Part shown: one piece after another, positions 1 through 45,340 of the stretch
Position numbering within the stretch: position 1 is the stretch's first letter
Layout of the letters: each line of letters begins with the position of its first letter
NCBI GenBank assembly: GCA_963169515.1
Contig: CAUJEF010000068.1
Span: forward strand, 1-45,340
Direction: 5' to 3'
DNA from: Bdellovibrionota bacterium
Lineage (GTDB): Bacteria > Bdellovibrionota > Bdellovibrionia > Bdellovibrionales > JAEYZS01
DNA: 45,340 nt
Program-made: the position numbers and the translations under genes
Notes under the pieces: model-generated
What the model saw: only the letters and a program-made list of their open reading frames with translations
What the model was told of the DNA's origin: nothing
Database searches by the model: none

Positions 1-33
1 TGCGATTCTTTTGACTGTTTCTTTAGAAATCAT
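1..33 (-). CDS. gatC: 5' end of probable Asp/Glu-tRNA amidotransferase subunit C (runs off window)
   Basis: Not in the ORF track. The minus strand from ATG at 33 reads MISKETVKRIA, resembling GatC N-termini (ISxEEVxHIAxLARL), with a GAGG RBS just upstream. Only 11 codons are visible. Confidence 0.55.
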   Translation of the reverse strand, partial: MISKETVKRIA

Positions 34-135
34 ATGGCCTCTAGTCAAGCGTCTCACCGCTTTTGCTGTTCATTTCGGTAAACACAAAATATCTGACATT
101 TCCGGCATAATGGATATGGTATTTGCGTTGCGTTG

Positions 136-164
136 TTGACCTGGGTGCTTGTAAAAATTAGTCT
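136..164 (+). promoter_or_regulatory. Candidate sigma70 promoter for ligA
   Basis: TTGACC (136-141), 17 bp spacer, TAGTCT (159-164), about 40 bp upstream of the ligA ATG. Confidence 0.4.
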
Positions 165-205
165 ACCCACCAAAGCCCAATTGTCCTTGGCTGCAGGGCC
201 CTAAA

Positions 206-2248
206 ATGAAACGTGATGAAAAAGTCAGATATCGAATTGAAGAGCTTCGGCGGGTAATACAACAACACGACTATAATTATTTCGTGTTGGATAAACCCAT
301 CATCCCAGATTTTGAATATGATCGTCTTTTCTCTGAACTTAGAGGTCTCGAACAAAAGCATCCCGACCTAGTTACTGCAACTTCTCCTACCCAGCGGGTT
401 GGCAGCATTGCGCTGAATAAATTCCCCAAAGTAAAGCATCGTATCCCTATGCTGTCTCTTCAAAACAGCTATTCTCCCGACGAAATTGTGGCCTTCCATG
501 AACGGGTATTAAAATTCTTAAAAAAGGAAGATGACTTCCAAATCGAATATTTTTGCGAACCCAAATTCGATGGTCTTGCGATTGAATTAATATATGAAGG
601 GGGTGTCCTCACTCACGCTGTTACACGCGGAGACGGCACAACCGGAGAAGACGTGTTTCCCAACGCAAAGACAATTAGAACAATTCCGCTCCGCCTATAT
701 GACGAAAGCCCGCCGCCCTTGATCGAAATCCGCGGCGAAATTTTAATGTTTAAAAAAGATTTTTTGGAATTAAACACCCAACAGCAAGAAAACGGCCAAG
801 AGCCTTTTGCAAACCCAAGAAACGCGGCGGCCGGCACCCTTCGCCAGCTTGATCCGCAAGTTGTCGCCAGCCGAAGCTTAAAGTTTTTTGCATACGCCAT
901 CGGGAAGGCAGAGGGCATTACATTTTTTCACCAAAGCGATCTGGCCCCCCATTTTCGGAGATGGGGAATCCCCGTTGTTGGGACGACAGACCTGGCTTTG
1001 CTTAGCTACAAAAAAGGGCTTTCTTGCGTTTGTAAGAGCGTCGACGAGGCGGTTTCTTTTTACAAACGGATTGAAGAGATCCGCCATGAACTGCCGTTTG
1101 AAATTGATGGCATCGTAACCAAAGTAAACAGCTTTGAGCTTCAAACCGCCCTTGATTTTATTGCGCGAAGCCCAAGATGGGCGACCGCCGCGAAGTTCAC
1201 CCCAAGCCGAGCGGAAACAAAAATTTTAAACATCGTTGTTCAGGTTGGTCGCACTGGCGCACTGACGCCCGTTGCAATCATGGAGCCTGTTGTCGTTGGC
1301 GGCGTAACAATTACGCACGCCACTCTTCACAACCAGAGTGAGATTGACCGAAAAGACGTTCGCATTGGTGACTCGGTTATTGTTCATCGGGCAGGCGACG
1401 TGATACCTGAAATTATAGAAGTCCTTTTGGACAAACGAGAAAAAAATGCATCTCCTTACAAAATTCCAAGCAAATGTCCTGTTTGCAAATCAGATGCTGT
1501 AAAGCTAACGGGCGAGGCCGTTTCCCGCTGTGTTAACCCGGCTTGTGAGGCCAAGCTCCGCGAGTCACTAAAACATTTCGCCTCTAAGCGCGCCATGAAT
1601 ATTGAATCCTTAGGCGACAAAATGATTGATCTCCTGGTTGATAAAAAACTAATTCACACCTATTCCGACATTTATCGAATCACCTTTGACGATTTAATCG
1701 CTCTAGATCGGCAGGGAAACACGTCTGCACAAAACCTGATCAATAGTATTGAAAAAAGCAAAAAATCTTCACTCAATAATTTTATCTATGCCCTCGGCAT
1801 TCGTTTCGTTGGCGAACAGACTGCAAAGTTGCTTGCTGATTATTTTGGCGACTTAGATAAAATTATGGTCGCCACCCCGGAAGACCTGTTGCGTGTCGAC
1901 GGCATCGGAGAAAAAATGGCCTTCTCTATATACGAAGCCTTTCAGCAAAAATCGTTTAGAGACGAAATCAAAAGTCTTTTGAAACACGGGATTGAGTTTG
2001 AAATCCGTACTAAAAAAGGACGCCGACTAAGCGAGGTCACCTTTGTAATTACCGGAACCTTGCCAAAGCCGCGCGAAGAAATTAAGACTCAAATTGAAAA
2101 CGAAGGGGGCCATGTTCTCGCCAGTGTATCTAAAAAGACGAACTATTTATTGGCTGGCGATGAAGCGGGCAGCAAAATAGAAAACGCCAAGAAGCTTGGC
2201 GTTCCTATTATTGATTGGAATAAATTTCAAAAAATGCTTGAGAAATAA
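206..2248 (+). CDS. ligA: NAD-dependent DNA ligase
   Basis: 680 aa. KFDG adenylation motif, EIRGE, NPRNAAAG, EIDG, OB-fold VGRTG, Cys4 zinc finger (CPVC...CVNPAC), HhH repeats and C-terminal BRCT (FVITGTL...SVSKKTNYL). Confidence 0.98.
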   Translation: MKRDEKVRYRIEELRRVIQQHDYNYFVLDKPIIPDFEYDRLFSELRGLEQKHPDLVTATSPTQRVGSIALNKFPKVKHRIPMLSLQNSYSPDEIVAFHERVLKFLKKEDDFQIEYFCEPKFDGLAIELIYEGGVLTHAVTRGDGTTGEDVFPNAKTIRTIPLRLYDESPPPLIEIRGEILMFKKDFLELNTQQQENGQEPFANPRNAAAGTLRQLDPQVVASRSLKFFAYAIGKAEGITFFHQSDLAPHFRRWGIPVVGTTDLALLSYKKGLSCVCKSVDEAVSFYKRIEEIRHELPFEIDGIVTKVNSFELQTALDFIARSPRWATAAKFTPSRAETKILNIVVQVGRTGALTPVAIMEPVVVGGVTITHATLHNQSEIDRKDVRIGDSVIVHRAGDVIPEIIEVLLDKREKNASPYKIPSKCPVCKSDAVKLTGEAVSRCVNPACEAKLRESLKHFASKRAMNIESLGDKMIDLLVDKKLIHTYSDIYRITFDDLIALDRQGNTSAQNLINSIEKSKKSSLNNFIYALGIRFVGEQTAKLLADYFGDLDKIMVATPEDLLRVDGIGEKMAFSIYEAFQQKSFRDEIKSLLKHGIEFEIRTKKGRRLSEVTFVITGTLPKPREEIKTQIENEGGHVLASVSKKTNYLLAGDEAGSKIENAKKLGVPIIDWNKFQKMLEK

Positions 2249-2251
2249 ATG

Positions 2252-2446
2252 CTACAGGTGGTCGATTTTAATATCACGAGCCATAACGGTTTTACGACCG
2301 TCTGCTTTTGCGCTTTCACAACCTCTTTCACATAGTTGCTCTACCGCTTTACTTAAAACTTGGACCGTTTCAGAAGAGGTATTAAATCCGCTTTTTTCTT
2401 TTATAAACTTCTTCACCTTGCTGGTAACAACTAATATATCTGCCAT
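2252..2446 (-). CDS. Bacterial histone (single histone fold, Bd0055/HBb-like DNA-binding protein)
   Basis: 64 aa, basic. LVVTSKVKKFIK helix 1, long helix 2, and AKADGRKTVMARD matching the HMf/H3/H4-type L2 'RKT(I/V)xxxD' motif. Strong GGAGG RBS at 2451-2455. Confidence 0.92.
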   Translation of the reverse strand: MADILVVTSKVKKFIKEKSGFNTSSETVQVLSKAVEQLCERGCESAKADGRKTVMARDIKIDHL

Positions 2447-2455
2447 TCGACCTCC

Positions 2456-2479
2456 AAAAAGCTTGGGTTGGTTCCCAAG
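2456..2479 (-). promoter_or_regulatory. Hairpin plus U5 directly upstream of the histone RBS
   Basis: On the transcript: CUUGGG-AACCAA-CCCAAG, then C-UUUUU-GGAGG. The stem is a perfect 6 bp. Confidence 0.4.
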
Positions 2480-2591
2480 TAGATTAAAATGTATCCTAAA
2501 ATTTATAAGTCATTGTTCTTTGCTTAGACCACTTAATTTTGAGGTTTTGGGCGGTTGCACAACAAAATATGTGTAAACGCGCCGCGTTTGG

Positions 2592-4112
2592 TTAGCCTGC
2601 TTGATTGGATGGATAGAGCTTTTTTCGTTCTTTTCGTGTGTAAAAAGGGCGTGCTTTATAAGTCTGTTTTGACGTCCCATTTGAAAACTCTCGAAGTTCT
2701 GCCTTTCGAGTGCCGTCTTCGCTTGGCGTTAACCAGATAAAAAGCTTTTTTGAAAATAGCTTTGTGCACTCTACGTCAAGAAAGGCCGGCGACCAGCTGC
2801 CGCTGTTCAAATGCTCAATTTCGCCTGCGATCTCATGCCTGGGTATATGAGTATGACCATAAACGATTCTTTTCACACGCGTGATTTTTGAAGAAATACT
2901 TAAAATCATTTCGTCAGGTTCTTTGTAGCGATGCACCTCAGATCGAATCGACTTTGAATAAAAGATGAAAAAGGGAACACATATCGCAAGCGGAATGAAC
3001 ATCCAAAAAAACGAAATACTAAACTGAAGCTTAATTAAGGTGAAAATCCAAAAAATAATTAAAAAAGAAAGCAATACTATAAAAGCACGATCAAGCCAGA
3101 GCTCCTGTGCCATCCGAAGCGGGTAGCTCGTCGCGGGGTGTGCCGCAAGCTCCTTGAGCTCTCGTACCATTCTCGGCGTCGCATTGGATTTATTCGCAAT
3201 CTCGTTGATTCGGTCTTCAATTGTTAGTGGATCTTTCAGGTCTGGAAGCAATCGATCTGTAAACGAATGAATAAGCGTCAAAAAAGAGCCCCAAAGCCAA
3301 GAAAACATAATAAGCGGTTCCGACTTCATCATGTACTTAACAAAAAAATTAATATATTCCTTGAAACTCATGATGTAGTTGGAATCCACATGGGGGTTAA
3401 AAAACCCCATTCCGTTAATCAAGTATCGGCAGGCTAAGTCGCCAAAAGGCAATCGCACCTCGATGCGATTAAATTTTTGAATCAATGGGTTAATCGGATT
3501 TTGACACAGACAATAAGGATCATATTGATTCCCATGTTCTATAAGAGTATCTCCGTTAGAGATATAAAACCACTCACAGAAACGAAGCCGGGCGTTTTCT
3601 TCGTCGGTCAAGCCCAGGGTCTTTCGAATTTCTTTTTGGACCCCTGGGTAATGTAGCTCTAGATCGTGATTCCCAATAACAACAACGACTCGATTCCCCT
3701 CTCTTACAAACTTCGTCAAAGACTTTACAAATAAGTCGTGATCTTTCAAAATCACCTTAATTTTAAAAACGGATTTTGCTTCTTCGGCAAATAGGCCTCT
3801 TTTTTTTTCTATCCAAGAAATGCTGTATGGCGCGTCCGGCGGCAAAGCCATAACGCTATCAAAGTCAAAAATGTCTCCATTTAGAACAAGCTCAACCATT
3901 TCCCCCTTTGCCTCTTTTTGTATATGATCTAGAAATCCGCTGAGCTGCTCATCAAAAAAAAACTGTCTTGTTTTATATTTCTTCCAAAGTGGTCGCTCTT
4001 TGTGTTCTGGTTCTGCTTCCGTAAGATGAATATCAGAAATCACAGCCGTAAATTTCGTCTTCGAAAAGTTTTTTAATACATCTTCTTCATTTTGGCTTGT
4101 GTGTGTCATCAT
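2592..4112 (-). CDS. Calcineurin-like metallophosphoesterase with two internal transmembrane helices
   Basis: Motifs SDIH, NGDIFD, GNHD, EHG and GHTH. Hydrophobic hairpin AFIVLLSFLIIFWIFTLI...FFWMFIPLAICVPFFIFY lies before the last motif. Confidence 0.85.
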   Translation of the reverse strand: MMTHTSQNEEDVLKNFSKTKFTAVISDIHLTEAEPEHKERPLWKKYKTRQFFFDEQLSGFLDHIQKEAKGEMVELVLNGDIFDFDSVMALPPDAPYSISWIEKKRGLFAEEAKSVFKIKVILKDHDLFVKSLTKFVREGNRVVVVIGNHDLELHYPGVQKEIRKTLGLTDEENARLRFCEWFYISNGDTLIEHGNQYDPYCLCQNPINPLIQKFNRIEVRLPFGDLACRYLINGMGFFNPHVDSNYIMSFKEYINFFVKYMMKSEPLIMFSWLWGSFLTLIHSFTDRLLPDLKDPLTIEDRINEIANKSNATPRMVRELKELAAHPATSYPLRMAQELWLDRAFIVLLSFLIIFWIFTLIKLQFSISFFWMFIPLAICVPFFIFYSKSIRSEVHRYKEPDEMILSISSKITRVKRIVYGHTHIPRHEIAGEIEHLNSGSWSPAFLDVECTKLFSKKLFIWLTPSEDGTRKAELREFSNGTSKQTYKARPFYTRKERKKLYPSNQAG

Positions 4113-4252
4113 ATGGATACCAACTGATTAACTTTAATCGGCTCTTTTTGAGAAAAAAGGAAGATTATTTCTTTATGTCGTAAGACATTAGAAAAGCGCC
4201 GCTGACAGGCAATCGTTAACAAGTTATACATGGTTCTCATTCTGAATCAACC

Positions 4253-4265
4253 TAAGTGCCTGAAA
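4253..4265. promoter_or_regulatory. IHF-like binding site upstream of the sigma54 promoter
   Basis: TAAGTGCCTGAAA, whose reverse complement TTTCAG-GCAC-TTA has 1 mismatch to WATCARNNNNTTR. It lies about 25 bp upstream of the -24 element. Confidence 0.4.
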
Positions 4266-4288
4266 CTTTGACGTTTTTTGATGAGTTC

Positions 4289-4305
4289 CTGGCATTGCCT
4301 TTGCT
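4289..4305 (+). promoter_or_regulatory. sigma54 (-24/-12) promoter
   Basis: CTGGCATTGCCTTTGCT, with GG (4291-92) and GC (4303-04) exactly 10 nt apart. One mismatch to TGGCAC-N5-TTGCW. Confidence 0.7.
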
Positions 4306-4319
4306 GTATATGTGAGCAT

Positions 4320-5864
4320 ATGGAACGAAGATCAAGGAAGAGAAAAAGTACCGCGATAGAGCGCCGGCTATTAGCGAGAAAAAAGTCCGTTCCTAAATGG
4401 AAAAAATTTATTAAAAACACCTTTGCCGCAACTGCCCTGGCAACATCTCAATTTGTAGTGGTTACCCCTCTTATCTATCTAACCTGCGCTGCGCTTAATT
4501 TTAAAGAAGACCTTCGGCTTGCAAAAGAAGATGACTTTCAAGACTCCTCGTTAATGTCTTTTGTCGTAGGCGAAGACCCTCCGGACGAAGTTTTCGACTA
4601 CATTGATTTCCCCGGATCGACCCTCGCCCTTGTTCCAGATCACAATCGAAGGCCCAGCAATGAAATTTCTAAAAAAGACATTCTATCAGACAAAGAAAAG
4701 CGAATTTCGCCCGAGTTTAGGGTCCCGGAGGCCCTCTATAACCGCACGGCTTTTTGGTATGATGTCTATACAAAATATTCCAACCAACAGCATGTATTTC
4801 ATAATCGCGACTTCCCCTGGATCGTCTACTCTGTTTCTGATGTAACTTCAATAATGAAGAACACCTCTTACAAAAACAAATGGACAAAGTTCCATCTGGC
4901 AAAACAAAAGGTTGTGCGAGACCGACAGCGTGTACGAAGCGCCCTTCTTGCTCTGGCCAAAAAAGACTTCAATAAATTGACTGGCGAAGATTTGGCGCTT
5001 TACAAATTATTCGATGAGATCCCTGGGAAAAATCGTCGCAAAATCATTCGAGATGCGGCATATACAATGCGCACACAGACCGGACAAAGGGAGTTTATCG
5101 AGAAAGGAATTTCTGAAAGCGCTCAGTATCTCCCGCACATGGAAAATGTTTTTAGCGAACAGGGCCTTCCGACAGAGCTAACTCGAATGCCCTTTGTAGA
5201 AAGCAGCTTTAATACCGCGGCCGAAAGTAAGGTGGGCGCAAGCGGCATTTGGCAATTTATGCCGACGACAGGAAAACAGTTTATGAAAGTCGGAGATCAC
5301 ATTGATGAAAGAAACTCTCCTTTAAAGGCGACAGTTGCCGCCGCAAAATTATTAAAGCAATATTATAAGGCTTTGGGGGCGTGGCCACTTGCGGTAACTG
5401 CGTATAATCATGGCCTTGGCAGCCTCCAAGAGGCCGTTAAAAAAACAAAATCAAAAGATATTTCATACATTATCAATAACTACAGAACAAAGAGTTTTGA
5501 TTTTGCCTCTCCCAATTTTTTTCCATCTTTCTTGGCAATCCTTCATGCAGAAAAATATCACGACGCAATCTATGGCCAAATCAAAAAAAATACGATCCTC
5601 GCCTTCAAAGAAGTTCGTTTGAAAAAAGGAATTCGAATTTCAAAGCTCCTTCGAGTTCTAAAAATGGACATGAATCAGTTTAAATTCTTCAACAAAGATA
5701 TTAGTGATGATTCGTTTAAGTTGAATCTTTCTTTGCCCCGCGGGTTTCGCCTGCATCTACCAGACAAATATTTGGATAAATACGTCGAGTACGAAAAGAA
5801 TCTTCTTCGCTCTCGCAGCCAGGGACGCATCACTATTACGAGCCAAAAGAAGCGGGAGTCTTAA
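4320..5864 (+). CDS. Lytic murein transglycosylase (SLT domain, MltD-like), N-terminally membrane-anchored
   Basis: PFVESSFN catalytic Glu, GASGIWQFM, AYNHG and a degenerate LysM-like C-terminus. Basic N-tail followed by a hydrophobic segment. Start moved to ATG 4320 because the ORF-track start (4278) lies upstream of the sigma54 promoter. Confidence 0.88.
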   Translation: MERRSRKRKSTAIERRLLARKKSVPKWKKFIKNTFAATALATSQFVVVTPLIYLTCAALNFKEDLRLAKEDDFQDSSLMSFVVGEDPPDEVFDYIDFPGSTLALVPDHNRRPSNEISKKDILSDKEKRISPEFRVPEALYNRTAFWYDVYTKYSNQQHVFHNRDFPWIVYSVSDVTSIMKNTSYKNKWTKFHLAKQKVVRDRQRVRSALLALAKKDFNKLTGEDLALYKLFDEIPGKNRRKIIRDAAYTMRTQTGQREFIEKGISESAQYLPHMENVFSEQGLPTELTRMPFVESSFNTAAESKVGASGIWQFMPTTGKQFMKVGDHIDERNSPLKATVAAAKLLKQYYKALGAWPLAVTAYNHGLGSLQEAVKKTKSKDISYIINNYRTKSFDFASPNFFPSFLAILHAEKYHDAIYGQIKKNTILAFKEVRLKKGIRISKLLRVLKMDMNQFKFFNKDISDDSFKLNLSLPRGFRLHLPDKYLDKYVEYEKNLLRSRSQGRITITSQKKRES

Positions 5865-5875
5865 GGATGTCCCGA

Positions 5876-8131
5876 TTAATAGTTTGGATTGAAAACATTG
5901 ATAACGTCTGGGTCTGACAGCGCTGTATGAATTTGCGTTTGCTGTATCCCTTTATAGTTCATAAGAATCGTTCGAACACCAGGAACTGCGTTGAAAATTA
6001 TAAATCCGCCTCCCAGAGGGGCGCTTGTCCCACCAACTAAGATATCGCCCTTTGAATCAAAATAGACAATGTCTGTCTCGTTATCTATACCAAGTGGATC
6101 CAGCTCAATACGCATATCCGCTTTCCTTGCTATGCCAACAATAATCCCCCGGTCCACATTTTGGTTAATGCGAGTTCGGGCAAGTGCTGCTGTAATCCAT
6201 TCATAAGAAACAACCGGAATCATAACTTGCTTCTGCGCTTTATCAACTGTAGCGCGAGAAACAAAATGATGTGTACTGTCTGTTCGCGCCTCTAGAACTT
6301 GGATTCCCTCTTTCCCAGAGAAATTCACAATATGCTTTCCCGTTTTTGAATATGCTGTCTTATCCGATCCTATGAATTTAATTTCAGAAGGCATTGGCTC
6401 GCTTGTTTCCAAATCAAACACATAAACTTCGGACTGTGATTTTTTCTGCCATTGAACCGTAACCGTCGACACAAATCCTCGATCTACTACAACAACTTGT
6501 GGTGGAAATAATTTGCCCTTATGGCGCGCTCGAACAATATAAATTCCTGGGTCAACGTCAAAGATCGCAAAGCGACCGTTTGAAGTTGTTGCCTTAAGCG
6601 AAGCGTCTGGGATTACTCCGCCGACAAAATACGTCGGCTGCAAGGCTTGCTCACTCGACACAACCTCGATCTCAGCATCAGAAATTGATACACTACCAAT
6701 TTTTACCTCACCCCAAATGATACCTGTCTTTTTTAATTTAGATGCCCCTATGTTGAGCTGCTCAAACCATGACCGAACTGTTTCGTCCCCGAACAGTGTA
6801 TGCTTGAAAACTTGCCCCGCTGTTTTAAACAGCATACTCCCCCAAAACCCATCTTTTTGTGCCCTGATTACCATCGTTGAGTCCGTCAGAATCTGAGCGC
6901 TGTCTTTGCCTGTGCTATCCGTTTTCCCCAGATCCATAAAATCATTAATCGATACGCTTGCCCCATCAACCTTTTGTTCGTCATCAAACGAATAGCCGGA
7001 CACCGTGACTATATTTGCTGATCCCACGACAGGTTTTATTTTTAATGGAATGTTTCTCAAGTCATCATATGTTTTTTGGTTTCGAATCGTTTCGTTTAAA
7101 AGAATCTCTCCGCGCCCCAATATTTGCTGATCTATCGTACGAAGTTCTGCAACAACAACGCCGTCTTGAGGGTTTCTAACAAAAATTTCATATCGCCCCT
7201 CTTTAATTACAACATTTCCTTCTTCCAATAACGTAGTCCCCGCTTGACGATACACCTTTATATATTGATCGTTTCCTAGGTATGCCAAACCATCCGCCAT
7301 TTCAATAGGACCCGAGATCAAGAGCTGTGGCTCTGCCAACAAACTTGCTTCTGCTGAGGTAGGTTGCACGGCCGTACGCAATGGCATCTCGGTTTGATCT
7401 TCGCCCATGTCGCGATTGTCTGCTACCGTTACTCCTGTGTCTGGCAAACTCGGCTGGCGAGTGGAATCATTGTTTGAGAGCAGTTTTTTCGCCTGCTGTT
7501 CAAAGGTTGGCTGTGACCAGTCCGCAGCGAGCACGCTATCCAAATTTTGTACTCCTTCAAGGCGCGCCCTCTGAGATGCCGTCAAATTTCCCATAATTTG
7601 ATTTCTTAAATAAAACCGCTTGATATCTTCAAACTGTTGATATGGATTTTTCGTAGAATCGGGTCTGTATTCTACAATATCCTGAGCGCGATCTCTCTCT
7701 TGTATTGTTTGGGGAGGCGGCGGCTTTCCATTGTCGCTTTTAGGTAGCGCTTTTAAAAGCATCATTACGTTGGGGCTATTTTTTTGAATCTTTATCCCAG
7801 ACAGACGAACAATTTCGTTTGTGTCTTTCGCGGGCACCAATTCGTCTTCCGCCACAGCCACAACGGTTTCTGTCGCGACTTTTCGAGCAATCTCTAGCGC
7901 TCGTTTTGTCAGGTCAAACATACCTGAGCGCAGCGGTATACCGACCGTCACTACAGGAACGATCTGCTTCATCATTTTTGGCTTAAGTTGCTCATCTTCA
8001 AAAATTGCTAGCGGCGGAGATTTTTTTGAGACACGGATGGATATTCCCTCCTGATGTCTAACAACATAGTTATTGATAGACTGAGGAATCATAGAAATCA
8101 AAATGAGAGTAACCAATTTGAGCTTTAGCAA
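5876..8131 (-). CDS. Large exported hypothetical protein with repeated beta-sandwich (carboxypeptidase-regulatory-like) modules
   Basis: 751-aa ORF with a hydrophobic N-terminus. Patterns such as GASVSI, TTSNGRFAIFDVDPGIYIVRA and FIIFNAVPGVRTI are typical of prealbumin-like folds. Confidence 0.65.
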   Translation of the reverse strand: MLKLKLVTLILISMIPQSINNYVVRHQEGISIRVSKKSPPLAIFEDEQLKPKMMKQIVPVVTVGIPLRSGMFDLTKRALEIARKVATETVVAVAEDELVPAKDTNEIVRLSGIKIQKNSPNVMMLLKALPKSDNGKPPPPQTIQERDRAQDIVEYRPDSTKNPYQQFEDIKRFYLRNQIMGNLTASQRARLEGVQNLDSVLAADWSQPTFEQQAKKLLSNNDSTRQPSLPDTGVTVADNRDMGEDQTEMPLRTAVQPTSAEASLLAEPQLLISGPIEMADGLAYLGNDQYIKVYRQAGTTLLEEGNVVIKEGRYEIFVRNPQDGVVVAELRTIDQQILGRGEILLNETIRNQKTYDDLRNIPLKIKPVVGSANIVTVSGYSFDDEQKVDGASVSINDFMDLGKTDSTGKDSAQILTDSTMVIRAQKDGFWGSMLFKTAGQVFKHTLFGDETVRSWFEQLNIGASKLKKTGIIWGEVKIGSVSISDAEIEVVSSEQALQPTYFVGGVIPDASLKATTSNGRFAIFDVDPGIYIVRARHKGKLFPPQVVVVDRGFVSTVTVQWQKKSQSEVYVFDLETSEPMPSEIKFIGSDKTAYSKTGKHIVNFSGKEGIQVLEARTDSTHHFVSRATVDKAQKQVMIPVVSYEWITAALARTRINQNVDRGIIVGIARKADMRIELDPLGIDNETDIVYFDSKGDILVGGTSAPLGGGFIIFNAVPGVRTILMNYKGIQQTQIHTALSDPDVINVFNPNY

Positions 8132-9308: not shown

Positions 9309-9794
9309 CTAGTTCTCATTTGAGAGAAAATCAAGAAGGGTTTTGTTCTGTTTATAGAACGAAATTCCCTCTATTTCCTTGAAAGAGTTTCGTATTGTTT
9401 TAATCGACTCATTTAAAACCGGATGATTATAGGATTCCCAGATATCTGTCGCGGGAACAATCCACTTGGGCGATTTGTGTAATAGCGGGTGGGGGATGGT
9501 CAGATGCGGCGACCTAAACACAACATCATCTATCAGCAAAATTTCCCACTTAAAATATTCACTTTTAACGCTCGCCAGTATTTTCTCAATTTCCCCCTTC
9601 GCCTCCAGTGGAGACTTTTTTGCGAGCTCTATGTGTGCCACAACAGAGATGCCATACGCATACGGCTCTGTCAGCTCATAAACAGAGGAAATATCTTTCA
9701 TTTTCGAATTGTAACTTAATTGAAGTAAAATTTTTCTAAGAGTAATCAGTTCTTTCTCAAATTTTGTCTCGAGCGCCAAAAGCACATTAGCCAT
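9309..9794 (-). CDS. folK: Degenerate HPPK/FolK-like protein
   Basis: Retains SSVYE, ILL..D, LTIPHP and HPVL of HPPK, but lacks GSN and RWGPRTLDLD. Confidence 0.6.
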
Positions 9795-25007: not shown

Positions 25008-25045
25008 TTTAATTGATCTACTTTAACGGATTCGAGGTATTTACC

Positions 25046-25855
25046 ATGAAGAAACTTTTACTTCTTTCTTTGATTTTTGCGTTTCCCGTTTTTGCCGCGA
25101 CATCGTCTGCAATTGTTGCAGAGGTTGGCGATATCAAAATTACAAACAAAGAGTTTAATCATAAATACGATGCGGTTAAAAAGTCTTTGAATCCTCCAAC
25201 GAAAGAGCAGTTTTTAGAAGACCTTGTTCGTTTTCAAATCGGAGTACAAGAGGCAAAAAAAAGAAAAATGGACCAAGACCCTGTCGTCCAAGAGCGGCTA
25301 GAACAGATTATGTATGTCCATTTGGTTGAAACTGAATTGGGCCAAAAGGCGACGGATTTAAACGTGAAAGAGTCTGAAATGCGCGAGTTTTATAAGTCCA
25401 ACCCAGAGCTTAGAACCAGCCACATACTGATTGAACTAAAGCCAAATGCAACGGCAAAAGAACATGCGGTTGCAAAAAAACGCGCTCAAGAAATCTATTC
25501 AGAAGTTAAGAAAAGCAAGCGCCCGTTTGAGGAGCTTGTTAAGCTATACAGCGACGACTCTCTAAGCAAAGTAAACGGAGGCGACATCGGATGGCACACT
25601 CCGCTTACCCTGCCAAACAGAGATTACTATAATACTGCAATGAAAATGAAGGTGGGAAATATTTCTGGCTTGGTTGAAACGGCCTTTGGGTTTCATATCA
25701 TAAAACTTACCGGCATTAATAAGTTTGAAGACGCAGACAAAACAAAAATCCGCGCGGCTGTACTCGAAACAAAAAAGAAAGCCCTGTTTGATAAGTTTTT
25801 TGCCAGCTTAAAGTCGAAATACAAAATAAAAACTTATAAAGAAAACCTAGAATAA
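25046..25855 (+). CDS. Periplasmic parvulin-type peptidyl-prolyl isomerase
   Basis: Signal peptide MKKLLLL...VFA, SHILI, NGGDIGW, TAFGFHII. GAGG RBS before ATG 25046. Confidence 0.9.
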   Translation: MKKLLLLSLIFAFPVFAATSSAIVAEVGDIKITNKEFNHKYDAVKKSLNPPTKEQFLEDLVRFQIGVQEAKKRKMDQDPVVQERLEQIMYVHLVETELGQKATDLNVKESEMREFYKSNPELRTSHILIELKPNATAKEHAVAKKRAQEIYSEVKKSKRPFEELVKLYSDDSLSKVNGGDIGWHTPLTLPNRDYYNTAMKMKVGNISGLVETAFGFHIIKLTGINKFEDADKTKIRAAVLETKKKALFDKFFASLKSKYKIKTYKENLE

Positions 25856-25859
25856 AACA

Positions 25860-26846
25860 TTGAACTCGCATCGTAAATTTTCATATGTTTTTTGGGGAGC
25901 CCTTCTTCTTCTATTTCTTGTTGGAGTAGCAAATCATTTTGGCTGGCTTAAAAGAAATCCTTTGAATAGGATTGCTATTATCAAAGTGAATGACCATGTT
26001 TTGTATGCACAAGAATTTTCAGAAAAGCTCGCCTGGGGATTGAAACAGTATGACGTTATTCTGGCAAAGGACCCTAAAATATTAGAGTTCGAAAAAGACA
26101 AGATCTTAGATGAATTTATTAATCGGTCTATTGTTGCCGATTGGACTAAAAAACATAACATCGACATCGCCGACAAAGAGCTCGACGAGGCGCTTTTTGA
26201 AATTCGAAAGAACTACCCAGATGATATTAGTTTTAAGCAAGCACTAAGTGATTCGAATCAAACGCTCGACAATTATAAAGAACGGCTTCGTTATACGCTT
26301 CTTCAAAGGAAGGTTTTTGCATATTTATCACAGAAAATAGGGTCGCCCCCAGACTCTGAACTAAAAGACTACTATGAAAAAAACAAGGCCGCGTTCGTGC
26401 AAAAAGCTCTTGTGCGGCTTCGACAAATCGTATTTGAAAAAGAAGACGCCGCCCAGCAGCTTTACCACAGCCTTTCTTCGGCCTCTAGCTTTGCCGATTT
26501 GGCAAAAAAATTCTCAATTGCGCCAGAGGCCCGTAATGGGGGGGACACTGGATGGATCGAGCGTGGCACATTAGAAATTTTTGACCGGGCCTTTAATATG
26601 CGCGTTGGTCAGCGAACTGGGGTTCTTAAAAGCCCTTACGGATTTCATATTTTTGAAGTAACAGAAAAGAAACCCGAATCTTATTTGAAATTTGAACAGG
26701 CCCGAGATAACATCCTGCGAACGGTTCGTGCGTCTAAGGAGCAGGCCCTTTACACCGAGTGGTTAGAAGATCAGATTCGCCTCGCACAGGTCTTTAAAAA
26801 CCCAGAAGCTCTAAAGGCTATTCAAGTGAAAGCGCTTGGGGAATAG
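25860..26846 (+). CDS. Membrane-anchored SurA/PrsA-like parvulin chaperone
   Basis: N-terminal TM helix, SurA_N-like helices, FADLAKKFS, NGGDTGW, SPYGFHIF. Confidence 0.88.
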   Translation: MNSHRKFSYVFWGALLLLFLVGVANHFGWLKRNPLNRIAIIKVNDHVLYAQEFSEKLAWGLKQYDVILAKDPKILEFEKDKILDEFINRSIVADWTKKHNIDIADKELDEALFEIRKNYPDDISFKQALSDSNQTLDNYKERLRYTLLQRKVFAYLSQKIGSPPDSELKDYYEKNKAAFVQKALVRLRQIVFEKEDAAQQLYHSLSSASSFADLAKKFSIAPEARNGGDTGWIERGTLEIFDRAFNMRVGQRTGVLKSPYGFHIFEVTEKKPESYLKFEQARDNILRTVRASKEQALYTEWLEDQIRLAQVFKNPEALKAIQVKALGE

Positions 26847-27785
26847 ATGAAAAAAATTTTCTTTGTTTTTTTGCTTGTTGGTTCTGTGGCTGCCGCCGAA
26901 GTCATCGAAAAAATTGTTGCCGTTGTAAATGACGAAATTATTACGCTTTCTGATATAAATAAATATCGATCTCAACTAAAAAAAGGAAAGTTTCTGGATG
27001 AAACTGTGTTGGCTAACAAGGATAAGCTTTTAAAAGATGAGGATGCTCTTATTAAGCATTTGATCGATGAAAAAATTATTGATTCCGCCGTTAAGCAAAT
27101 GGGGCTCGCAATGACCGTAGAAAAGGTGGAACAAGAAATAGAATCTATTGCCCGTCGAAACAAGATCTCAACGGGCGATTTAAGGTCTGAAATTAAAAAA
27201 GAGGGCGTCAGTTTTTCTGAATATCAAAATTTCGTAAAGCAACGGCTCGAGAGGCAGGCGCTTATCGAGCGCGCCGTGACTTCTAAAATAAAAATAACCG
27301 ATGAAGAGGTGCAAGCCTATTATTTAACAAAACACAAGGGTCCGAACGCCGAAAGCTATGAGTACACGCTTGCCCATATTTTAATTTCTGACAAGTCTGG
27401 CCCTGACGCGGCGAAGAAAAAAACTGACGATCTGGAAAAAAGGCTGCGCAATGGCGAGGGCTTTGAATCCCTTGCCGCACAATTCAGCGAAGACCCAAAT
27501 TTTACAGCTGGCGGCTTTTTAGGAACCTTTAAGTCTGGTGAGTTTTTAAGTGAACTTGAGGCGGGGGTAAAAAATATCCCCATCGGAGGCCTTTCGGCTC
27601 CCGTTAAAACAAAGCTCGGTTACCATATCTTAAAAGTTTTGAATAAAAAAATCATATCTGATCCGAAATTTGAAGCGCAGAAAGAAAATATTCGAAATTT
27701 GCTGTACAAAGACGCATTTTCCAATCAGTTCAATTTTTGGCTAGAACAAGAGCGCGCCTCCGCATTTGTTAAAATAAACAAATGA
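26847..27785 (+). CDS. surA: Chaperone SurA (single parvulin domain)
   Basis: Signal peptide, EKIVAVVNDEIITLSD, AHILI, GG.LG, TKLGYHILKV. Directly upstream of pdxA. Confidence 0.8.
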   Translation: MKKIFFVFLLVGSVAAAEVIEKIVAVVNDEIITLSDINKYRSQLKKGKFLDETVLANKDKLLKDEDALIKHLIDEKIIDSAVKQMGLAMTVEKVEQEIESIARRNKISTGDLRSEIKKEGVSFSEYQNFVKQRLERQALIERAVTSKIKITDEEVQAYYLTKHKGPNAESYEYTLAHILISDKSGPDAAKKKTDDLEKRLRNGEGFESLAAQFSEDPNFTAGGFLGTFKSGEFLSELEAGVKNIPIGGLSAPVKTKLGYHILKVLNKKIISDPKFEAQKENIRNLLYKDAFSNQFNFWLEQERASAFVKINK

Positions 27786-36359: not shown

Positions 36360-37164
36360 TTGTTTAAGCCCCCTGCGCCAGGTAAAAATTCTCTCCGACT
36401 CATAAGCCGCTCAATCTTTTCTTTAATAAATTTTTCCCCCAATTGACTTTGATCCATATTTTTTAAAACGTCGATTGCTTTGTCGAAATCTTCCATCTCT
36501 TCATAAATGATCGCAACATTCAAACCAAGATTATTTTTTTTATAAAACTCCGCATCCTCGCTTTGTATTTGAAAAAAAATATTTAATGCTTCGCTGTATT
36601 GTTTATTCCCAGAAAAAATATCGGCAACCAGCATTTGTCCTTGGAATTTTAATTCTGCCCTCGGCGCGTCCTTGATGACTTTTTTTATTTCGACCATCGC
36701 TTGATCAAACCGCCTCAAAAAATAATAGCTCTTCGCAAGGCTAATCAAAACTTCAAATTTCCCCTCTTGAAAGGATGGCTTGGACAAAATCCTTTGATAT
36801 TCGACAACTGCTCGGCCGTAATCAGCCTCTTCAAAATAGGAGTCTGCAATTTTTCTTTGGTACTGAACTAACTGGCTCTCATCCGCCGAATGGGAAATGA
36901 TAAATTTGGCAAATTTTTGGAAAAAAGTTCTGTTCTCAGGCATTTTAAAAGCTGTGTCTGCCCCCAAAATAGCGGCCTTCAGAGCAACTGGATGTTCCGG
37001 TGACATTATCAAAATAAGTTCGAGGTCCTTTAGACCTTTTTGAATTTTTTCCTTTCGAATTTCGTTTTGTCCAGACTTATAAAGTCGCTCTTCTTTTTCG
37101 GTCTTACAGCTCGCTGTAGTTAAAAAAAAACTACTACAAGGCTAGTGAGTATTTTCTTTTTCAC
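36356..37164 (-). CDS. TPR lipoprotein, frameshifted within a T9 tract in its signal peptide
   Basis: GTG 37164 (GAGGG RBS) gives MKKKILTSLVVVFF*. One extra T continues it into LTTASC-KTEKEERLY..., joining the 218-aa TPR ORF for 269 aa in total. Confidence 0.75.
37122..37130. repeat. A9/T9 homopolymer at the frameshift
   Basis: Nine consecutive A on the plus strand. Confidence 0.9.
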
Positions 37165-39619
37165 CGCTTCCCTCTTCTTGCTTGTCTGATACAACCGCGA
37201 CGCTTGAAACATTTTCATCTTCGCCAACAGTGATCAATCGTACTCCTTGCGTATTTCTTGATATCAGAGAAATTGCCGAGCACTCCAGTCGAATAACTTT
37301 GCCGCCATCAGTAATAATTACGATGTCATCGCTTTCATTTACAGCCACTGTTGAAACAACTTTCCCAATTTTTTCTGTAATTTTTTGTGTAATGATACCG
37401 GACCCGCCACGTCCTTGAGCCCTGTATTCTTCAAGTGACGTTCTTTTTCCATAGCCTTTTTCTGTAACCATAAGAATTTGGCGAGCATCGTCCGGAACAA
37501 AAACTTCCGCTCCAATTACCGCGTCGTCTTTGCTCAGTGCTATCGCCTTTACGCCGCGAGCATTCCGGCCCATGGCGCGCACGTCGTCCTCAGGGAAGCG
37601 AATAGACATACCGTCGGTGGTGGCAACAAAAATATCATCGCTCCCGGTTGATAATTTTGCCTGGACCAGACTGTCGTTAATATCAATTGTGAGGGCAATG
37701 ATTCCGGACTGCCTTGGCCGTGAAAACTCGGACAATGGAGTTTTTTTGATAATTCCATTTTTGGTGACCAAGACAACATATCTATCCTCTGCAAACTGAT
37801 CCACGGGCAGGATGGCTTGAATTTTTTCGTTGCTTGATAGCTGGACAACATTCGCAATTGCTTTCCCTTTTGAAGTTCTCGTTCCGGCAGGAAGCTTATG
37901 AACCTTTACCCAGTAGACCTTTCCCTTATCTGAAAAAACAAGAAGAGTCGTTAGGGTATTGGCAATAAAAATTGAGGAGACAAAGTCTTCTTCATTTGTC
38001 TCTATGCCCTTCAGACCCTTCCCTCCTCGGCCCTGGGATCTGTAGGTGTTTTTTGGAATGCGCTTGATGTAGCCCTGACTTGTTATGGTTACGACGACGT
38101 CCTCTGGAGCGATGAGATCTTCATCTTCGATGGCCTCGGCCTCCTCGCCTGTGATTTGAGTTTTTCTTTCGTCTCCAAATTTCTTTTTTACCTCACGGAG
38201 GTCTTCGACAATAATTTTGTGAATTTCCTTAACGTCGGAAAGTACCTTCTTAAGCCAGGCAATCAGGCCTTCTTGTTCTTTTATCTCAGCGTCTATTTTC
38301 TGACGTTCTAGGCCTGTCAATCGTGACAGGCGCATTTCAAGAATCGAGTTTGCTTGGATTTCAGAAAATTGAAATTTTTTGATTAGATTTTCGCGCGCAA
38401 CACCAACCTCGGCACTTTTCTTAATTGTATCTACAATCTCATCAATCTGATCCAGAGCCTTTTTTAACCCAAGCAAAATATGAATTCGCGCTTCTGCTTT
38501 TTTTAAGTCGAATATGCATCGCTTAGTTACAATGTCTTGCCTGTGGGCAACAAATGCCTGCATGATTCCTTTAAGATCAAAAACTTTGGGCCTATTTTTT
38601 TCATCCAGAGCCAGCAAGATGATGCCGAAGCGCGATTGCAATTGAGTATACTTAAATAAATTATTTAAAATAACAGAGCTGTTTTCGCCTTTTTTTAAAT
38701 CAATAACAACACGCATTCCTTCGCGAGAAGATTCATCACGAATATCAGATACGCCTTCAATTTTTTTATCTCTTACGAGGTCTGCTATATTTTCAATTAA
38801 CCGTGCCTTGTTCACCTGATATGGTATTTCTGTAACCACAATCCGTTCGCGATCTTTTCCGTGAGTTTCTATTTCTGTTACTGCACGCATGGTAATGCCA
38901 CCGCGACCATTCTTATAGGCGTCTAAAATTCCTTTGCGCCCAACAATTAATCCCGCGGATGGAAAGTCTGGTCCTTTTACAATCTGCAATAGGTCCGACA
39001 ATTGACAGTTCGGATCCTCGATAACCTTTATGCATCCATCTATAACTTCGTTTAAATTGTGGGGAGGAATATTTGTAGCCATGCCAACGGCAATTCCGGC
39101 GCTACCATTAATTAAAAGGTTGGGGACTCGGGCCGGAAGCACCAATGGAATTTCCAAAGAATCGTCATAGTTTGGGCCAAAAGGAACCGTTTCTTTATCT
39201 ATGTCCTCGAGCAAAGACTCTGCAAGTTCAGTCATTCGCACTTCTGTGTATCGCATCGCCGCAGGGTTATCGCCGTCTATAGACCCAAAATTCCCCTGTC
39301 CTTCAATTAATGGATACCGTAATGAAAAATCTTGAGCCATACGAACAGCCGTATCATAAACGGCTGTGTCCCCATGGGGATGATATTTACCAATCACATC
39401 ACCAACAACGCGAGCAGATTTTTTGTATGGCTTATCATGGGTATTCCCCATTTCGTGCATTGCGAACAAAATACGTCGATGAACGGGCTTCAGTCCATCT
39501 CGAACGTCAGGAAGAGCGCGACCCACAATTACGCTCATGGAATACTGAAGGTAAGCTTCCTTCATCTCTGAATCTATATCAACGTCCACTACGTTTTTAG
39601 GGACTTCAATTTCGTTCAC
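37142..39619 (-). CDS. gyrA: DNA gyrase subunit A
   Basis: RALPDVRDGLKPVHRR, HPHGD, AAMRYTE, GyrA-box QGRGGKG and pinwheel repeats. Confidence 0.98.
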   Translation of the reverse strand: MNEIEVPKNVVDVDIDSEMKEAYLQYSMSVIVGRALPDVRDGLKPVHRRILFAMHEMGNTHDKPYKKSARVVGDVIGKYHPHGDTAVYDTAVRMAQDFSLRYPLIEGQGNFGSIDGDNPAAMRYTEVRMTELAESLLEDIDKETVPFGPNYDDSLEIPLVLPARVPNLLINGSAGIAVGMATNIPPHNLNEVIDGCIKVIEDPNCQLSDLLQIVKGPDFPSAGLIVGRKGILDAYKNGRGGITMRAVTEIETHGKDRERIVVTEIPYQVNKARLIENIADLVRDKKIEGVSDIRDESSREGMRVVIDLKKGENSSVILNNLFKYTQLQSRFGIILLALDEKNRPKVFDLKGIMQAFVAHRQDIVTKRCIFDLKKAEARIHILLGLKKALDQIDEIVDTIKKSAEVGVARENLIKKFQFSEIQANSILEMRLSRLTGLERQKIDAEIKEQEGLIAWLKKVLSDVKEIHKIIVEDLREVKKKFGDERKTQITGEEAEAIEDEDLIAPEDVVVTITSQGYIKRIPKNTYRSQGRGGKGLKGIETNEEDFVSSIFIANTLTTLLVFSDKGKVYWVKVHKLPAGTRTSKGKAIANVVQLSSNEKIQAILPVDQFAEDRYVVLVTKNGIIKKTPLSEFSRPRQSGIIALTIDINDSLVQAKLSTGSDDIFVATTDGMSIRFPEDDVRAMGRNARGVKAIALSKDDAVIGAEVFVPDDARQILMVTEKGYGKRTSLEEYRAQGRGGSGIITQKITEKIGKVVSTVAVNESDDIVIITDGGKVIRLECSAISLISRNTQGVRLITVGEDENVSSVAVVSDKQEEGSGEKENTH

Positions 39620-39647
39620 ATCGTCTCCGGCTATCTAACTAATTAAT

Positions 39648-43210
<3,563 letters not shown>

Positions 43211-43211
43211 A

Positions 43212-44336
43212 TCAGATTCTCATTGGCATAACTAGACAACGATAGTCACCATCTTTTGATGGACGAATAATTCCTGGTGAAAGCTGATCATTTAATTCAA
43301 TTTTTATTTCATCATCTTCAATAGCATTCAATATATCTAATAAATATCTAGCATTGAATCCTATTTTCATATCTTCACCATTATAATTTACTTGTAGTTC
43401 TTCCTTTGCATCTCCTAATTCTGGATTATTAGATGTAATCGTCATATAGCCATTAGAAAAACTTAGTGTTACGCCTTTTGATTTTTTATTCGACAAAAGT
43501 GATACGCGCTTTAATGAAGTGAGCAGATCATTTTTAGAAGCCAATACTTGTCTCTTCAAAGATTTTGGCATCAATTGCATAAAGTTTGGATACTTCCCTT
43601 CTATCAAACGAATCATCAAAACTGTCGAAGACTGCTTTAATATTAATTGTGGTCCATCTACAGCTATTGAAATTTCATCTGTAGAATTCAATTCCAATAA
43701 TTTTTTTATTTCAAACAGGCCTTTCCTTGGAATAATAACACCCTTTTCTATTTTGCAATCATCGCTTCCTTCCACAGATCGGTCTATCAAACTTAATCTA
43801 TGACCATCGGTTGCAACCATCCGATACTGGGCGCCCTTCCCACTTTTGGTTTGTTCAAAATAAACACCATTTAGGTGATATCGAGTTTCGTCATTCGAAA
43901 CACTATAGATTGATTTTTCTATCATATCCCGAAAAAGTTCTGGTTTTAGAGTTAAGTAGTGATGTGCATGATACGTTGGGAAAACAGGATACTCTTCTGG
44001 ATTTTTTCCAACGATATTAAAAATGGCTTTACCTTGTTGGATTATTAGCCAATTATTTTCTTTGCTCTTTAACTGTATTAATCCATCTTGATTAAGTTCA
44101 CGAATAATGGAGTAAAGGTTTTTTGCATCCACAGCAACCTTGCCTTCTTTTTTAATCTCACATTCGACTTCGTCGGTAAGACTAACTTCCAAATCCGTAG
44201 CATAAATTTTTAATTTGTTATCCTTTGCTTCTAAAAGAGCATTAACAAGGATAGGCATGGTATTTCGTTTTTCGACGATATTCTGCGCCTTATCGAGCAA
44301 AACAGATATCAAGTCTTTCTTAATTTTAATTTCCAT
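43212..44336 (-). CDS. dnaN: DNA polymerase III beta clamp
   Basis: ATDLEV, ATDGHRL, IIPRK, IEGKYP, GFNARYL, VMPMRI. Confidence 0.97.
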   Translation of the reverse strand: MEIKIKKDLISVLLDKAQNIVEKRNTMPILVNALLEAKDNKLKIYATDLEVSLTDEVECEIKKEGKVAVDAKNLYSIIRELNQDGLIQLKSKENNWLIIQQGKAIFNIVGKNPEEYPVFPTYHAHHYLTLKPELFRDMIEKSIYSVSNDETRYHLNGVYFEQTKSGKGAQYRMVATDGHRLSLIDRSVEGSDDCKIEKGVIIPRKGLFEIKKLLELNSTDEISIAVDGPQLILKQSSTVLMIRLIEGKYPNFMQLMPKSLKRQVLASKNDLLTSLKRVSLLSNKKSKGVTLSFSNGYMTITSNNPELGDAKEELQVNYNGEDMKIGFNARYLLDILNAIEDDEIKIELNDQLSPGIIRPSKDGDYRCLVMPMRI

Positions 44337-44546
44337 ACCTTCTTATCTCCTTTTATCTATATATAAAACTAGTAGTTGCTGTAGGGGCGTTGATAAATCA
44401 TTTTAATTCTAACCATTTAAGACCATTAATCTTTTTCTGCTAAAAGCCATGTTGATAACTTTTTGTTTCATCCATGTTTTTTGTGTATTAATCTCATCAA
44501 CATCCTCATACCAATTTTTTACACTAGCATATTCACAATCCACATT
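44337..44546. other. oriC: Chromosomal replication origin oriC (dnaA-dnaN intergenic)
   Basis: DnaA-box-like 9-mers at 44388-96, 44450-58, 44482-90, 44494-502, 44529-37 and 44536-44. GC stretch at 44384-88, trio-like TAG TAG TTG CTG TAG at 44370-84, AT-rich tract at 44351-68. Confidence 0.85.
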
Positions 44547-45340
44547 TCACAAACCTGTGATATTGTGAATTTTCCTCTGCAACTCCTCGATTTCTCTTTT
44601 TAAATCTGAATCTTTTTCATGTAGATCTTCGACTCGACGCAAAGCGTTTATAACTGTTGTGTGGTCGCGTCCGCCGAACGCTCTTCCAATGTCCATAAGC
44701 GACTTGTCCAGAGAAGTTTTGATGAAATACATGGCAACTTGGCGTGCCACAACAATCGGTTTAGATCGAACAGAAGATTTTAAATCAGAGACGCGAATAT
44801 TAAAATGATCAGCTACAAGCTTTTGTATGTCTTCAATCGTCAATTGCTGCGACTCAGATGAATGTGAAGACAAAATTCTTTTTGTTAATTCTAACGAAAT
44901 AGGCAGGCCTTGGAGTTCCGTGAACATTTTTACTTTATTTAAATTTCCCTCAAGCTCACGAATTGAGCGCTTTGAAATTCGAGCTATGAAATTAATAACG
45001 TCGTCTGGAATGTTTAAATTTTTCCGCTCTGCTTTGTACCTTAAGATGGCAATTCTAGTTTCAACGTCAGGCATTTGTATATCAGCAATTAAACCCCATT
45101 CAAGGCGGGTTCGAATACGATCTTCCAAATTTTGAATATCTTTTGGCATACGATCACTTGCAACAACGACTTGGCGACCTGTTTCAAAAAATGAATTCAA
45201 TGTGTGAAAAAACTCTTCTTGAACCGCATCTCCACGACCAAGGATTTGGATATCATCCATTAACAAAACGTCGCATTCTTCTCGGTATTTCTTCTTAAAT
45301 TTTTGCATTTCGTTTGTGCGGATTCCGGCAATGCATTCAT
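44547..45340 (-). CDS. dnaA: Chromosomal replication initiator DnaA (3' part; 5' end outside window)
   Basis: LLMDDIQ Walker B, QEEFFHTLN, IRELEG, FGGRDHTTV. The frame is open to the window edge. Confidence 0.97.
   Translation of the reverse strand, partial: ECIAGIRTNEMQKFKKKYREECDVLLMDDIQILGRGDAVQEEFFHTLNSFFETGRQVVVASDRMPKDIQNLEDRIRTRLEWGLIADIQMPDVETRIAILRYKAERKNLNIPDDVINFIARISKRSIRELEGNLNKVKMFTELQGLPISLELTKRILSSHSSESQQLTIEDIQKLVADHFNIRVSDLKSSVRSKPIVVARQVAMYFIKTSLDKSLMDIGRAFGGRDHTTVINALRRVEDLHEKDSDLKREIEELQRKIHNITGL

Follow-up and report, generated by a model that had tools for sequence, protein, structure and literature searches.

The window analysed here, i.e., the whole 45,340-nucleotide stretch of DNA, carries a short histone gene between the genes of a DNA ligase and a phosphoesterase, and the origin-region genes lie at its far end. 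The features on which the analysis was based are as follows.

206..2248, plus strand: ligA, NAD-dependent DNA ligase of 680 aa, complete and convergent with the histone gene, with the full Pfam set (adenylation, OB, Zn, HhH and BRCT domains)
2181..2205, minus strand: terminator-like hairpin of 11 pairs with a T-run (pattern scan), 47 nt past the histone stop codon and inside the 3′ coding end of ligA
2252..2446, minus strand: histone gene (open reading frame, PF00808, phmmer, AlphaFold2/Foldseek and third-position-dominated divergence)
2451..2455, minus strand: Shine-Dalgarno sequence GGAGG (direct reading), 4 nt before the ATG at 2446-2444
2462..2479, minus strand: 6-bp hairpin with a T-run (pattern scan), directly upstream of the Shine-Dalgarno sequence
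2592..4112, minus strand: calcineurin-like metallophosphoesterase of 506 aa (PF00149, E 1.3e-08), separated by a 145-nt gap from the histone start
37142..45338, minus strand: origin-region cluster dnaA (partial)-dnaN-recF-gyrB-gyrA (Pfam)

The histone frame at 2252-2446 (minus strand) comprises 64 codons and a TAG stop, with no in-frame start farther upstream, which confirms the 64-aa open reading frame called in the first-pass annotation. The GGAGG ribosome-binding site reported with it was found at 2455-2451 of the same strand, and a Shine-Dalgarno-like motif was located at most 20 nt upstream of the gene in 90 of the 91 orthologous loci. The convergence on ligA was as described as well: the ligA stop codon TAA (2246-2248) and the histone stop codon (2252-2254) are separated by 3 bp. 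The product had been characterized as a tail-less basic protein. It has no tail, and it is basic, but only mildly so (pI 9.06, 12 K+R versus 9 D+E).

A search of the protein database with a threshold of E ≤ 0.001 yielded 1065 relatives. Among the best 120 of these 1065, identity to the window protein was 77–92%, and 110 of the 120 were exactly 64 aa long. The set of orthologous loci (n = 91) was composed of 80 related public loci and 11 loci from genome sampling of the same order, and mean identity over the set was 72% for nucleotides and 81% for amino acids. Across the 91 orthologue comparisons, which are non-independent, the differences at codon positions 1, 2 and 3 numbered 1042, 510 and 3308, respectively, and 2629 synonymous codon changes stood against 1110 non-synonymous ones. 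This pattern of divergence indicates purifying selection on the histone gene. Altogether, 29 columns were invariant across 169 unique 64-aa relatives and the window protein.

Several signals flanking the gene were evaluated. The hairpin at 2462..2479 (minus strand) could belong to the 5′ UTR as a stem-loop, or it could terminate transcription of the upstream gene. Its candidacy as a conserved leader or attenuator was rejected, with such an element present in 4 of 84 unique upstream regions against a shuffle mean of 3.86 (sd 1.7), and the fold of 2440-2520 was no better than that of shuffled sequences (z −0.77). On the other side of the gene, the hairpin at 2181..2205 (minus strand) is a candidate terminator of the histone transcript; terminator-like sites in 1800-2800 numbered six versus 1.4 expected from shuffles. 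A palindrome within the DGRKTV codons (2286-2301, plus strand) was considered as a ligA terminator kept through codon choice and was discarded, with all five pairs found in 21 of 84 unique coding sequences and the codons varying freely. In the same interval, 1800-2800, no sigma-70-like promoter was detected (1.5 expected).

The order phosphoesterase, histone, ligA is conserved. Of the 80 related loci, 51 have a convergent ligA no more than 400 nt away, and 67 have ligA on the opposite strand somewhere in the fetched flank. The phosphoesterase gene precedes the histone gene on its strand, at a distance of at most 600 nt, in 57 loci. For both neighbours, the sequence available on the side concerned reached 600 nt or more in 77 of the 80 loci. 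The related public records are labelled as Bdellovibrionales, Pseudobdellovibrionaceae and Bdellovibrio. In the window, dnaA is about 42 kb from the histone gene, and the GC content falls to 0.343 in 42001-45000. In complete Bdellovibrio chromosomes, the orthologue is found about 44–52 kb from the record start. The origin-proximal site and the orientation, which is that of the dnaA-gyrA cluster, would be in keeping with a function during replication.

Every one of the 41 genomes sampled within the order, which represent 13 families and 30 genera and include that of the host, contains the gene. At the level of the phylum, a match at E ≤ 1e-10 was obtained in 148 of 201 sampled genomes, some of these matches being longer ZZ-type proteins, and Bd0055 homologues were reported in 67% of Bdellovibrionota genomes (PMC10627809, accessible part). 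A 3.4-kb contig labelled as a Bacillota bacterium (L053) encodes an 80%-identical histone within the same phosphoesterase-histone-ligA order; it looks like mis-binned Bdellovibrionota DNA and not like a Bacillota histone. In one relative of the same order, two singlet histone copies, both 77% identical, are located about 2.2 kb apart (G202:C5:141979-142164 and 144366-144551, minus strand). Elsewhere in the window, three tandem PPIase (rotamase)/SurA-like genes are followed by pdxA (25013-27785, plus strand), and three minus-strand frames of 751, 638 and 161 aa (5876-8131, 32635-34551 and 9309-9794) are without a Pfam family at E ≤ 1e-5.

DNA nearly identical to window positions 1900-2900 was present in metagenomes from wastewater, biofilm, wetland, soil and bioreactors. 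At least half of the sampled words were present in 16 runs; the 20 runs with such sequence (DNA and RNA together) came from 13 studies, and three are possibly source runs. Two metatranscriptome runs of one study (X19 and X20) each contained one contig over the gene without mismatch (2229-2471 and 2265-2473), although such contigs cannot prove transcription, strand or level. Neither run had a contig on the ligA or phosphoesterase flanks, an absence which proves nothing. Of two further runs, taken as RNA only by guess, one (X17) had contigs over 2525-2801 and not over the histone gene, and the other (X18) had contigs over 2268-2418 and 2729-2879. Codon adaptation, with the ribosomal-protein operon as reference, was also tried as a proxy for abundance. 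The CAI of the histone gene was 0.704, the 49th percentile of length-matched windows, on a scale where ribosomal-protein genes had 0.738 and the background 0.703 (sd about 0.04 for 64-codon windows); given this percentile and a genome bias that is weak for a 64-codon gene, the proxy was set aside as uninformative.

The window protein is an orthologue of Bdellovibrio bacteriovorus HBb/Bd0055, the “bacterial dimer” type of histone with a truncated α3. In a phmmer search against the sequences of solved structures, the HBb/Bd0055 chains 8FVX_A and 8CMP_A were the two best matches, covering residues 1-64 with an E-value of 3e-27. Counted over the full length of this alignment, 50 of the 64 residues (78%) were identical. 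In Pfam, residues 11-60 matched PF00808 (CBFD_NFYB_HMF, clan Histone) with 24.4 bits versus a cut-off of 21.4. The score for PF00125 (19.2 bits) was under its cut-off of 26.4, and that for the NCBIfam model archaea_histone (30.6 bits) was under its cut-off of 50.

An AlphaFold2 model, built from a 23-row alignment, had a mean pLDDT of 86.5 and contained helices at residues 2-19 and 25-48 and a one-turn helix at 56-58, in line with the three-helix spacing that had been read from the sequence. The five top PDB matches of the model in Foldseek were all HBb entries (TM 0.78–0.86, rmsd 1.6–2.4 Å). These were followed by Leptospira HLp, by archaeal HTkC and then by eukaryotic and archaeal core histones, and every match listed at ranks 1-50 was a histone-fold protein. 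Thus, the comparison with Bd0055 and archaeal HMf that the first-pass annotation had proposed gave a histone-fold match in both profile and structure searches, and its assignment of a stand-alone protein to the Bd0055/HBb family held. The “bacterial dimer” category was defined by sequence clustering (Schwab et al. 2024, PMC11390915, accessible part), and the window protein is close in sequence to its HBb/Bd0055 members by the E-value and identity given above. The model also displays the truncated α3 (56-58) and the shortened α2 (25-48) that define this type in the accessible parts of PMC11390915 and PMC10627809.

The residues to which functions have been assigned in Bd0055 are nearly all retained. 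The DNA contacts described by Hu et al. 2024 (PMC11317129, accessible part), namely, N22, R57, S9, T53, T8, S24, K10, K12, K52 and K16, are identical in 10 of 10 cases. Against the same source, the residues of the L2 salt bridges (D49, R51 and D58) are identical in 3 of 3 cases and those of the dimer interface (L31, I35, L38, V11 and I59) in 4 of 5, with I35 replaced by V. The L2 motif recognized earlier, AKADGRKTVMARD, was found at residues 46-58. It includes the RKTxxxD motif, or RD clamp, as R51-K52-T53...D58 together with D49, and the α1 lysines K10, K12 and K16 are present; R51, K52, T53, R57 and D58 were invariant in alignment A1.

With respect to tetramerisation, the α3 helix of Bd0055 was reported to form one turn, with the remainder packing in an extended form, and the archaeal tetramerisation His to be absent (Hocher et al. 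2023, PMC10627809, accessible part). In that study, DNA wrapping was restored by the triple mutant A48H, S45F, I61L. The window protein has S45, A48 and I61, the same residues as the non-tetramerising Bd0055, and lacks the archaeal tetramerisation residues; in the 91 orthologous loci, S45 occurs in 87, A48 in 75 and I61 in 88. The published account of Bd0055, as far as its text was accessible, therefore matches the earlier proposal, in which the very short helix 3 was taken to fit a lost tetramer interface.

Compared with the solved HBb/Bd0055 structures (PDB 8CMP, 8FVX, 8FW7, 9EZZ and 9F0E), the window protein has the same length of 64 aa, the same fold, the short α2 and the one-turn α3. The DNA-contact residues, the RD clamp, S45/A48/I61 and the conserved C39 are shared as well, and so are the origin-proximal site beside a convergent ligA and the presence of a ZZ-type second histone in the same genome. 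The differences consist of 14 substitutions, among them C43, K60 and Q29, which are rare in the family. The host also differs from B. bacteriovorus: it is uncultured, is placed in a different family within the order and has a genome of 2.4 Mb with 42.5% GC.

HLp of Leptospira perolatii (PDB 9QT0-9QT2) shares the α3-truncated fold and an RKT-type L2 loop with the window protein (Foldseek TM 0.70–0.78, 34–36% identity). However, HLp is a stable tetramer that wraps about 60 bp of DNA (PMC12701072, accessible part), whereas the window protein has HBb-type residues at the tetramer-linked positions. The likeness to archaeal HMfA/HMfB and HTkA extends to the histone fold, the L1-L2 and α1 DNA contacts, the RD clamp and PF00808, and the HMfA chains were matched with an E-value of 0.17 in phmmer and a TM of about 0.46–0.49 in Foldseek. 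In contrast to the window protein, the archaeal histones possess a longer α2, a three-turn α3 and a His-containing four-helix-bundle interface, which lead to tetramers and hypernucleosomes (PMC10627809, accessible part).

The assembly (2.38 Mb, 173 contigs, 96% complete) contains three HU/IHF-family genes (PF00216) and a second histone-fold gene. The latter is located on another contig (G000 contig C107, L002:1231-1695, plus strand) and encodes a protein of 154 aa, the C-terminal 60 residues of which are 47% identical to the window protein. Its N-terminus is rich in Cys and His (C-x2-C ... C-x4-C ... C-x3-C-x3-H-x5-H), and Pfam gave only sub-threshold zinc-finger hints there. ZZ histones were described as carrying C4 and C2H2 sites (Schwab et al. 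2024, PMC11390915, accessible part), and the sequence of this paralogue fits the ZZ type, probably Bd3044-like. Its C-terminal fold shares 42–47% of residues with the window protein, LC... and DGRKTVM.RD among them, and the N-terminal Cys/His-rich domain has no counterpart in the window gene. Low expression was reported for ZZ histones in B. bacteriovorus. The repertoire of a histone, a ZZ histone and HU/IHF mirrors that of B. bacteriovorus HD100, for which Bd0055, Bd3044, HU and Dps were listed (PMC10627809, accessible part).

The first-pass annotation had drawn attention to a C-x3-C pair, C39 and C43, and attributed only the first of the two cysteines to Bd0055. This is correct: in the phmmer alignment, Bd0055 has C39 and V43. 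C39 was invariant in the 110 relatives of 64 aa among the best 120 of 1065 and in all 91 genomic orthologues, and the ZZ paralogue of the same genome has it as well. The alignment of orthologues that had been proposed for the second cysteine revealed that C43 is lineage-restricted. At position 43, the 169 unique 64-aa relatives have I in 102 cases, V in 43, S in 7, A in 5, M in 5, F in 3, C in 2, Y in 1 and L in 1, so that C43 is found only in the window protein and in P0001 and P0002, the two database entries nearest to it (92% and 89% identical). Twenty more distant homologues, taken from further families within the phylum (43–61% identical), are divided evenly at position 39, with Leu in 10 and Cys in the other 10; at position 43, 13 of them have I, 4 have V, 2 have M and 1 has A. 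Archaeal HTkC (9F2C) has V and I in columns 39 and 43 of the phmmer alignment. At position 21, the 169 relatives have M in 74 cases, C in 61 and F in 25. Judging by helical periodicity, positions 39 and 43 are on the α2 face of L31, I35 and L38, which are interface residues according to the accessible part of PMC11317129. K60 and Q29 are also rare: K60 occurs in 2 of the 169 relatives (mostly V/I elsewhere) and Q29 in 4 (mostly D/E elsewhere). C43, K60 and Q29 are common to the window protein and its two nearest relatives, with the net charge slightly increased.

Based on the above results, we suggest, with a probability of roughly 0.9, that the gene encodes a histone of the HBb/Bd0055 type, i.e., a dimeric, non-wrapping, nucleoid-associated protein acting beside HU/IHF, in which C43 has no special function. 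Dimerisation, DNA binding, abundance and a role in the nucleoid are attributed to the window protein by homology and would operate as follows. Two chains would form a homodimer by antiparallel packing of α2 (handshake), as suggested by the interface residues, of which V11, L31, L38 and I59 are unchanged and only I35 differs, with V in its place. The dimer would bind DNA via the phosphate backbone without sequence preference. The paired L1-L2 loops would contact DNA through N22, S24, K52, T53 and R57, and the N-terminal turn of α1 through T8, S9, K10, K12 and K16, with the L2 loop presumably held by the D49-R51-D58 salt bridges. Single dimers may bend DNA, or they may coat it at high density, and the protein would be an abundant nucleoid component alongside HU/IHF. 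Because the archaeal tetramerisation residues are absent, no wrapping into nucleosomes or hypernucleosomes would be expected.

Two binding modes have been described for Bd0055. According to PMC10627809, the dimers bind end-on and sheathe straight DNA at high density, and according to PMC11317129, single dimers introduce an HU-like bend of about 84 degrees over 36 bp. Within their accessible parts, the two studies agree that there is neither a tetramer nor wrapping, and they differ on the DNA-binding mode; the dimeric, non-nucleosomal behaviour that the first-pass annotation gave for Bd0055 matches both. The sequence evidence is equally compatible with the sheath and bending models and does not choose between them. 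The abundance and essentiality given there for Bd0055 also correspond to the published data, in which it outranks every other protein of the nucleoid fraction in amount and its deletion was not possible (PMC10627809, accessible part). In a Bacteriovorax study, promoter-centred accessibility was described (PMC11789641, accessible part). Histone-based chromatin in the present organism, as proposed earlier, is plausible on these grounds of homology.

Other explanations of the locus have to be weighed against the HBb/Bd0055-type histone. The frame is short, only 64 codons, and overlaps a 126-aa frame on the plus strand (2196-2576), so it might be a chance open frame, e.g., antisense to a real feature, that encodes nothing. 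The 1065 homologues, the match to a solved structure (E 3e-27) and the third-position-dominated divergence refute this reading, which we regard as having a negligible probability. The Shine-Dalgarno motif in 90 of 91 orthologous loci is against it as well, and an Rfam scan of 1-6000 (E ≤ 1) gave no match nearby, the only two matches being sub-threshold and distant from the histone gene. A real histone-fold protein could still have another role, for example as a specific regulator of low abundance or as a scaffold for protein-protein contacts, like some eukaryotic histone-fold proteins. The codon bias is not elevated, and the genome keeps three HU/IHF-family genes; the authors of PMC11390915 also caution, in its accessible part, that prokaryotic histone-fold proteins need not all organise genomes. 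However, ten identical DNA-contact residues, 78% identity to Bd0055, the nucleoid abundance and failed deletion of the latter, the presence of the gene throughout the sampled order (41 of 41 genomes) and its conserved origin-proximal position all argue for a general nucleoid function, and such another role seems very improbable.

The remaining alternative accepts the histone and concerns the cysteines: C39-x3-C43 would be a thiol switch, where oxidation or a soft metal alters dimer stability or DNA binding and couples chromatin to stress. Residues i and i+4 share one helix face. The pair does exist, C39 is invariant, and C43 is confined to the window protein and its two nearest relatives. Moreover, Bd0055 was purified in 1 mM TCEP (PMC10627809), and its redox behaviour appears unexplored in the accessible texts of PMC10627809 and PMC11317129, in which the word “disulfide” occurs 0 times and “cysteine” only in a proteomics setting. 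On the other hand, a cysteine kept for its thiol should not be exchanged for aliphatic residues, whereas 145 of 169 relatives have I or V at position 43, and nearly all the rest have S, A, M, F, Y or L there, and position 39 is Leu in 10 of the 20 distant homologues, which have I, V, M or A at 43; HTkC has V and I. Both columns belong to the hydrophobic α2 face with L31, I35 and L38, and Cys is one hydrophobic option at position 21 too. Two thiols are too few for the usual structural metal site, and an i/i+4 disulfide in a regular helix is sterically unfavourable. Given the I/V at position 43 and the Leu/Cys alternation at position 39, the simplest reading of these substitution patterns is therefore that both cysteines probably occupy buried packing positions of the hydrophobic core, and that C43 would be a rare, conservative I/V-to-C replacement without special function. 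Consequently, of the redox or metal site proposed by the first-pass annotation, the lineage specificity (C43 in 2 of 169) stood and the site itself was unsupported. A thiol switch is thus improbable, if a shade less so than the regulator or scaffold role. We rate just as low the broader suggestion that C43, together with C39, K60 and Q29, makes dimer packing or DNA coating responsive to thiol oxidation or soft metals; if it were true, the lineage of the window protein, P0001 and P0002 would have a redox-tunable bacterial chromatin protein.

The family had been described as often annotated as hypothetical, and the NCBI name was indeed “hypothetical protein” in 3 of 3 rows carrying such a name among the best 120 of 1065 relatives. 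In the same 120, the JGI name “histone H3/H4” was given to 22, and a precomputed PF00808 assignment was present in only 8. The near-threshold Pfam scores and the scarcity of PF00808 assignments explain the “hypothetical protein” labels.

It should be noted that the family, its structure, its dimeric non-wrapping behaviour and its spread in Bdellovibrionota have already been published (2023–2025), in agreement with the earlier remark that it is a described one. The sole new element in the window histone is the second cysteine, C43, which is real and lineage-restricted. The discovery of bacterial histones is both recent and notable, but the window gene adds only one orthologue to a well-described family. 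The further gains are modest: the proximity of the family to the Pfam threshold is confirmed, the origin-proximal order phosphoesterase-histone-ligA is documented, and the C-x3-C pair is best read as a substitution in the hydrophobic core and not as a new regulatory site.
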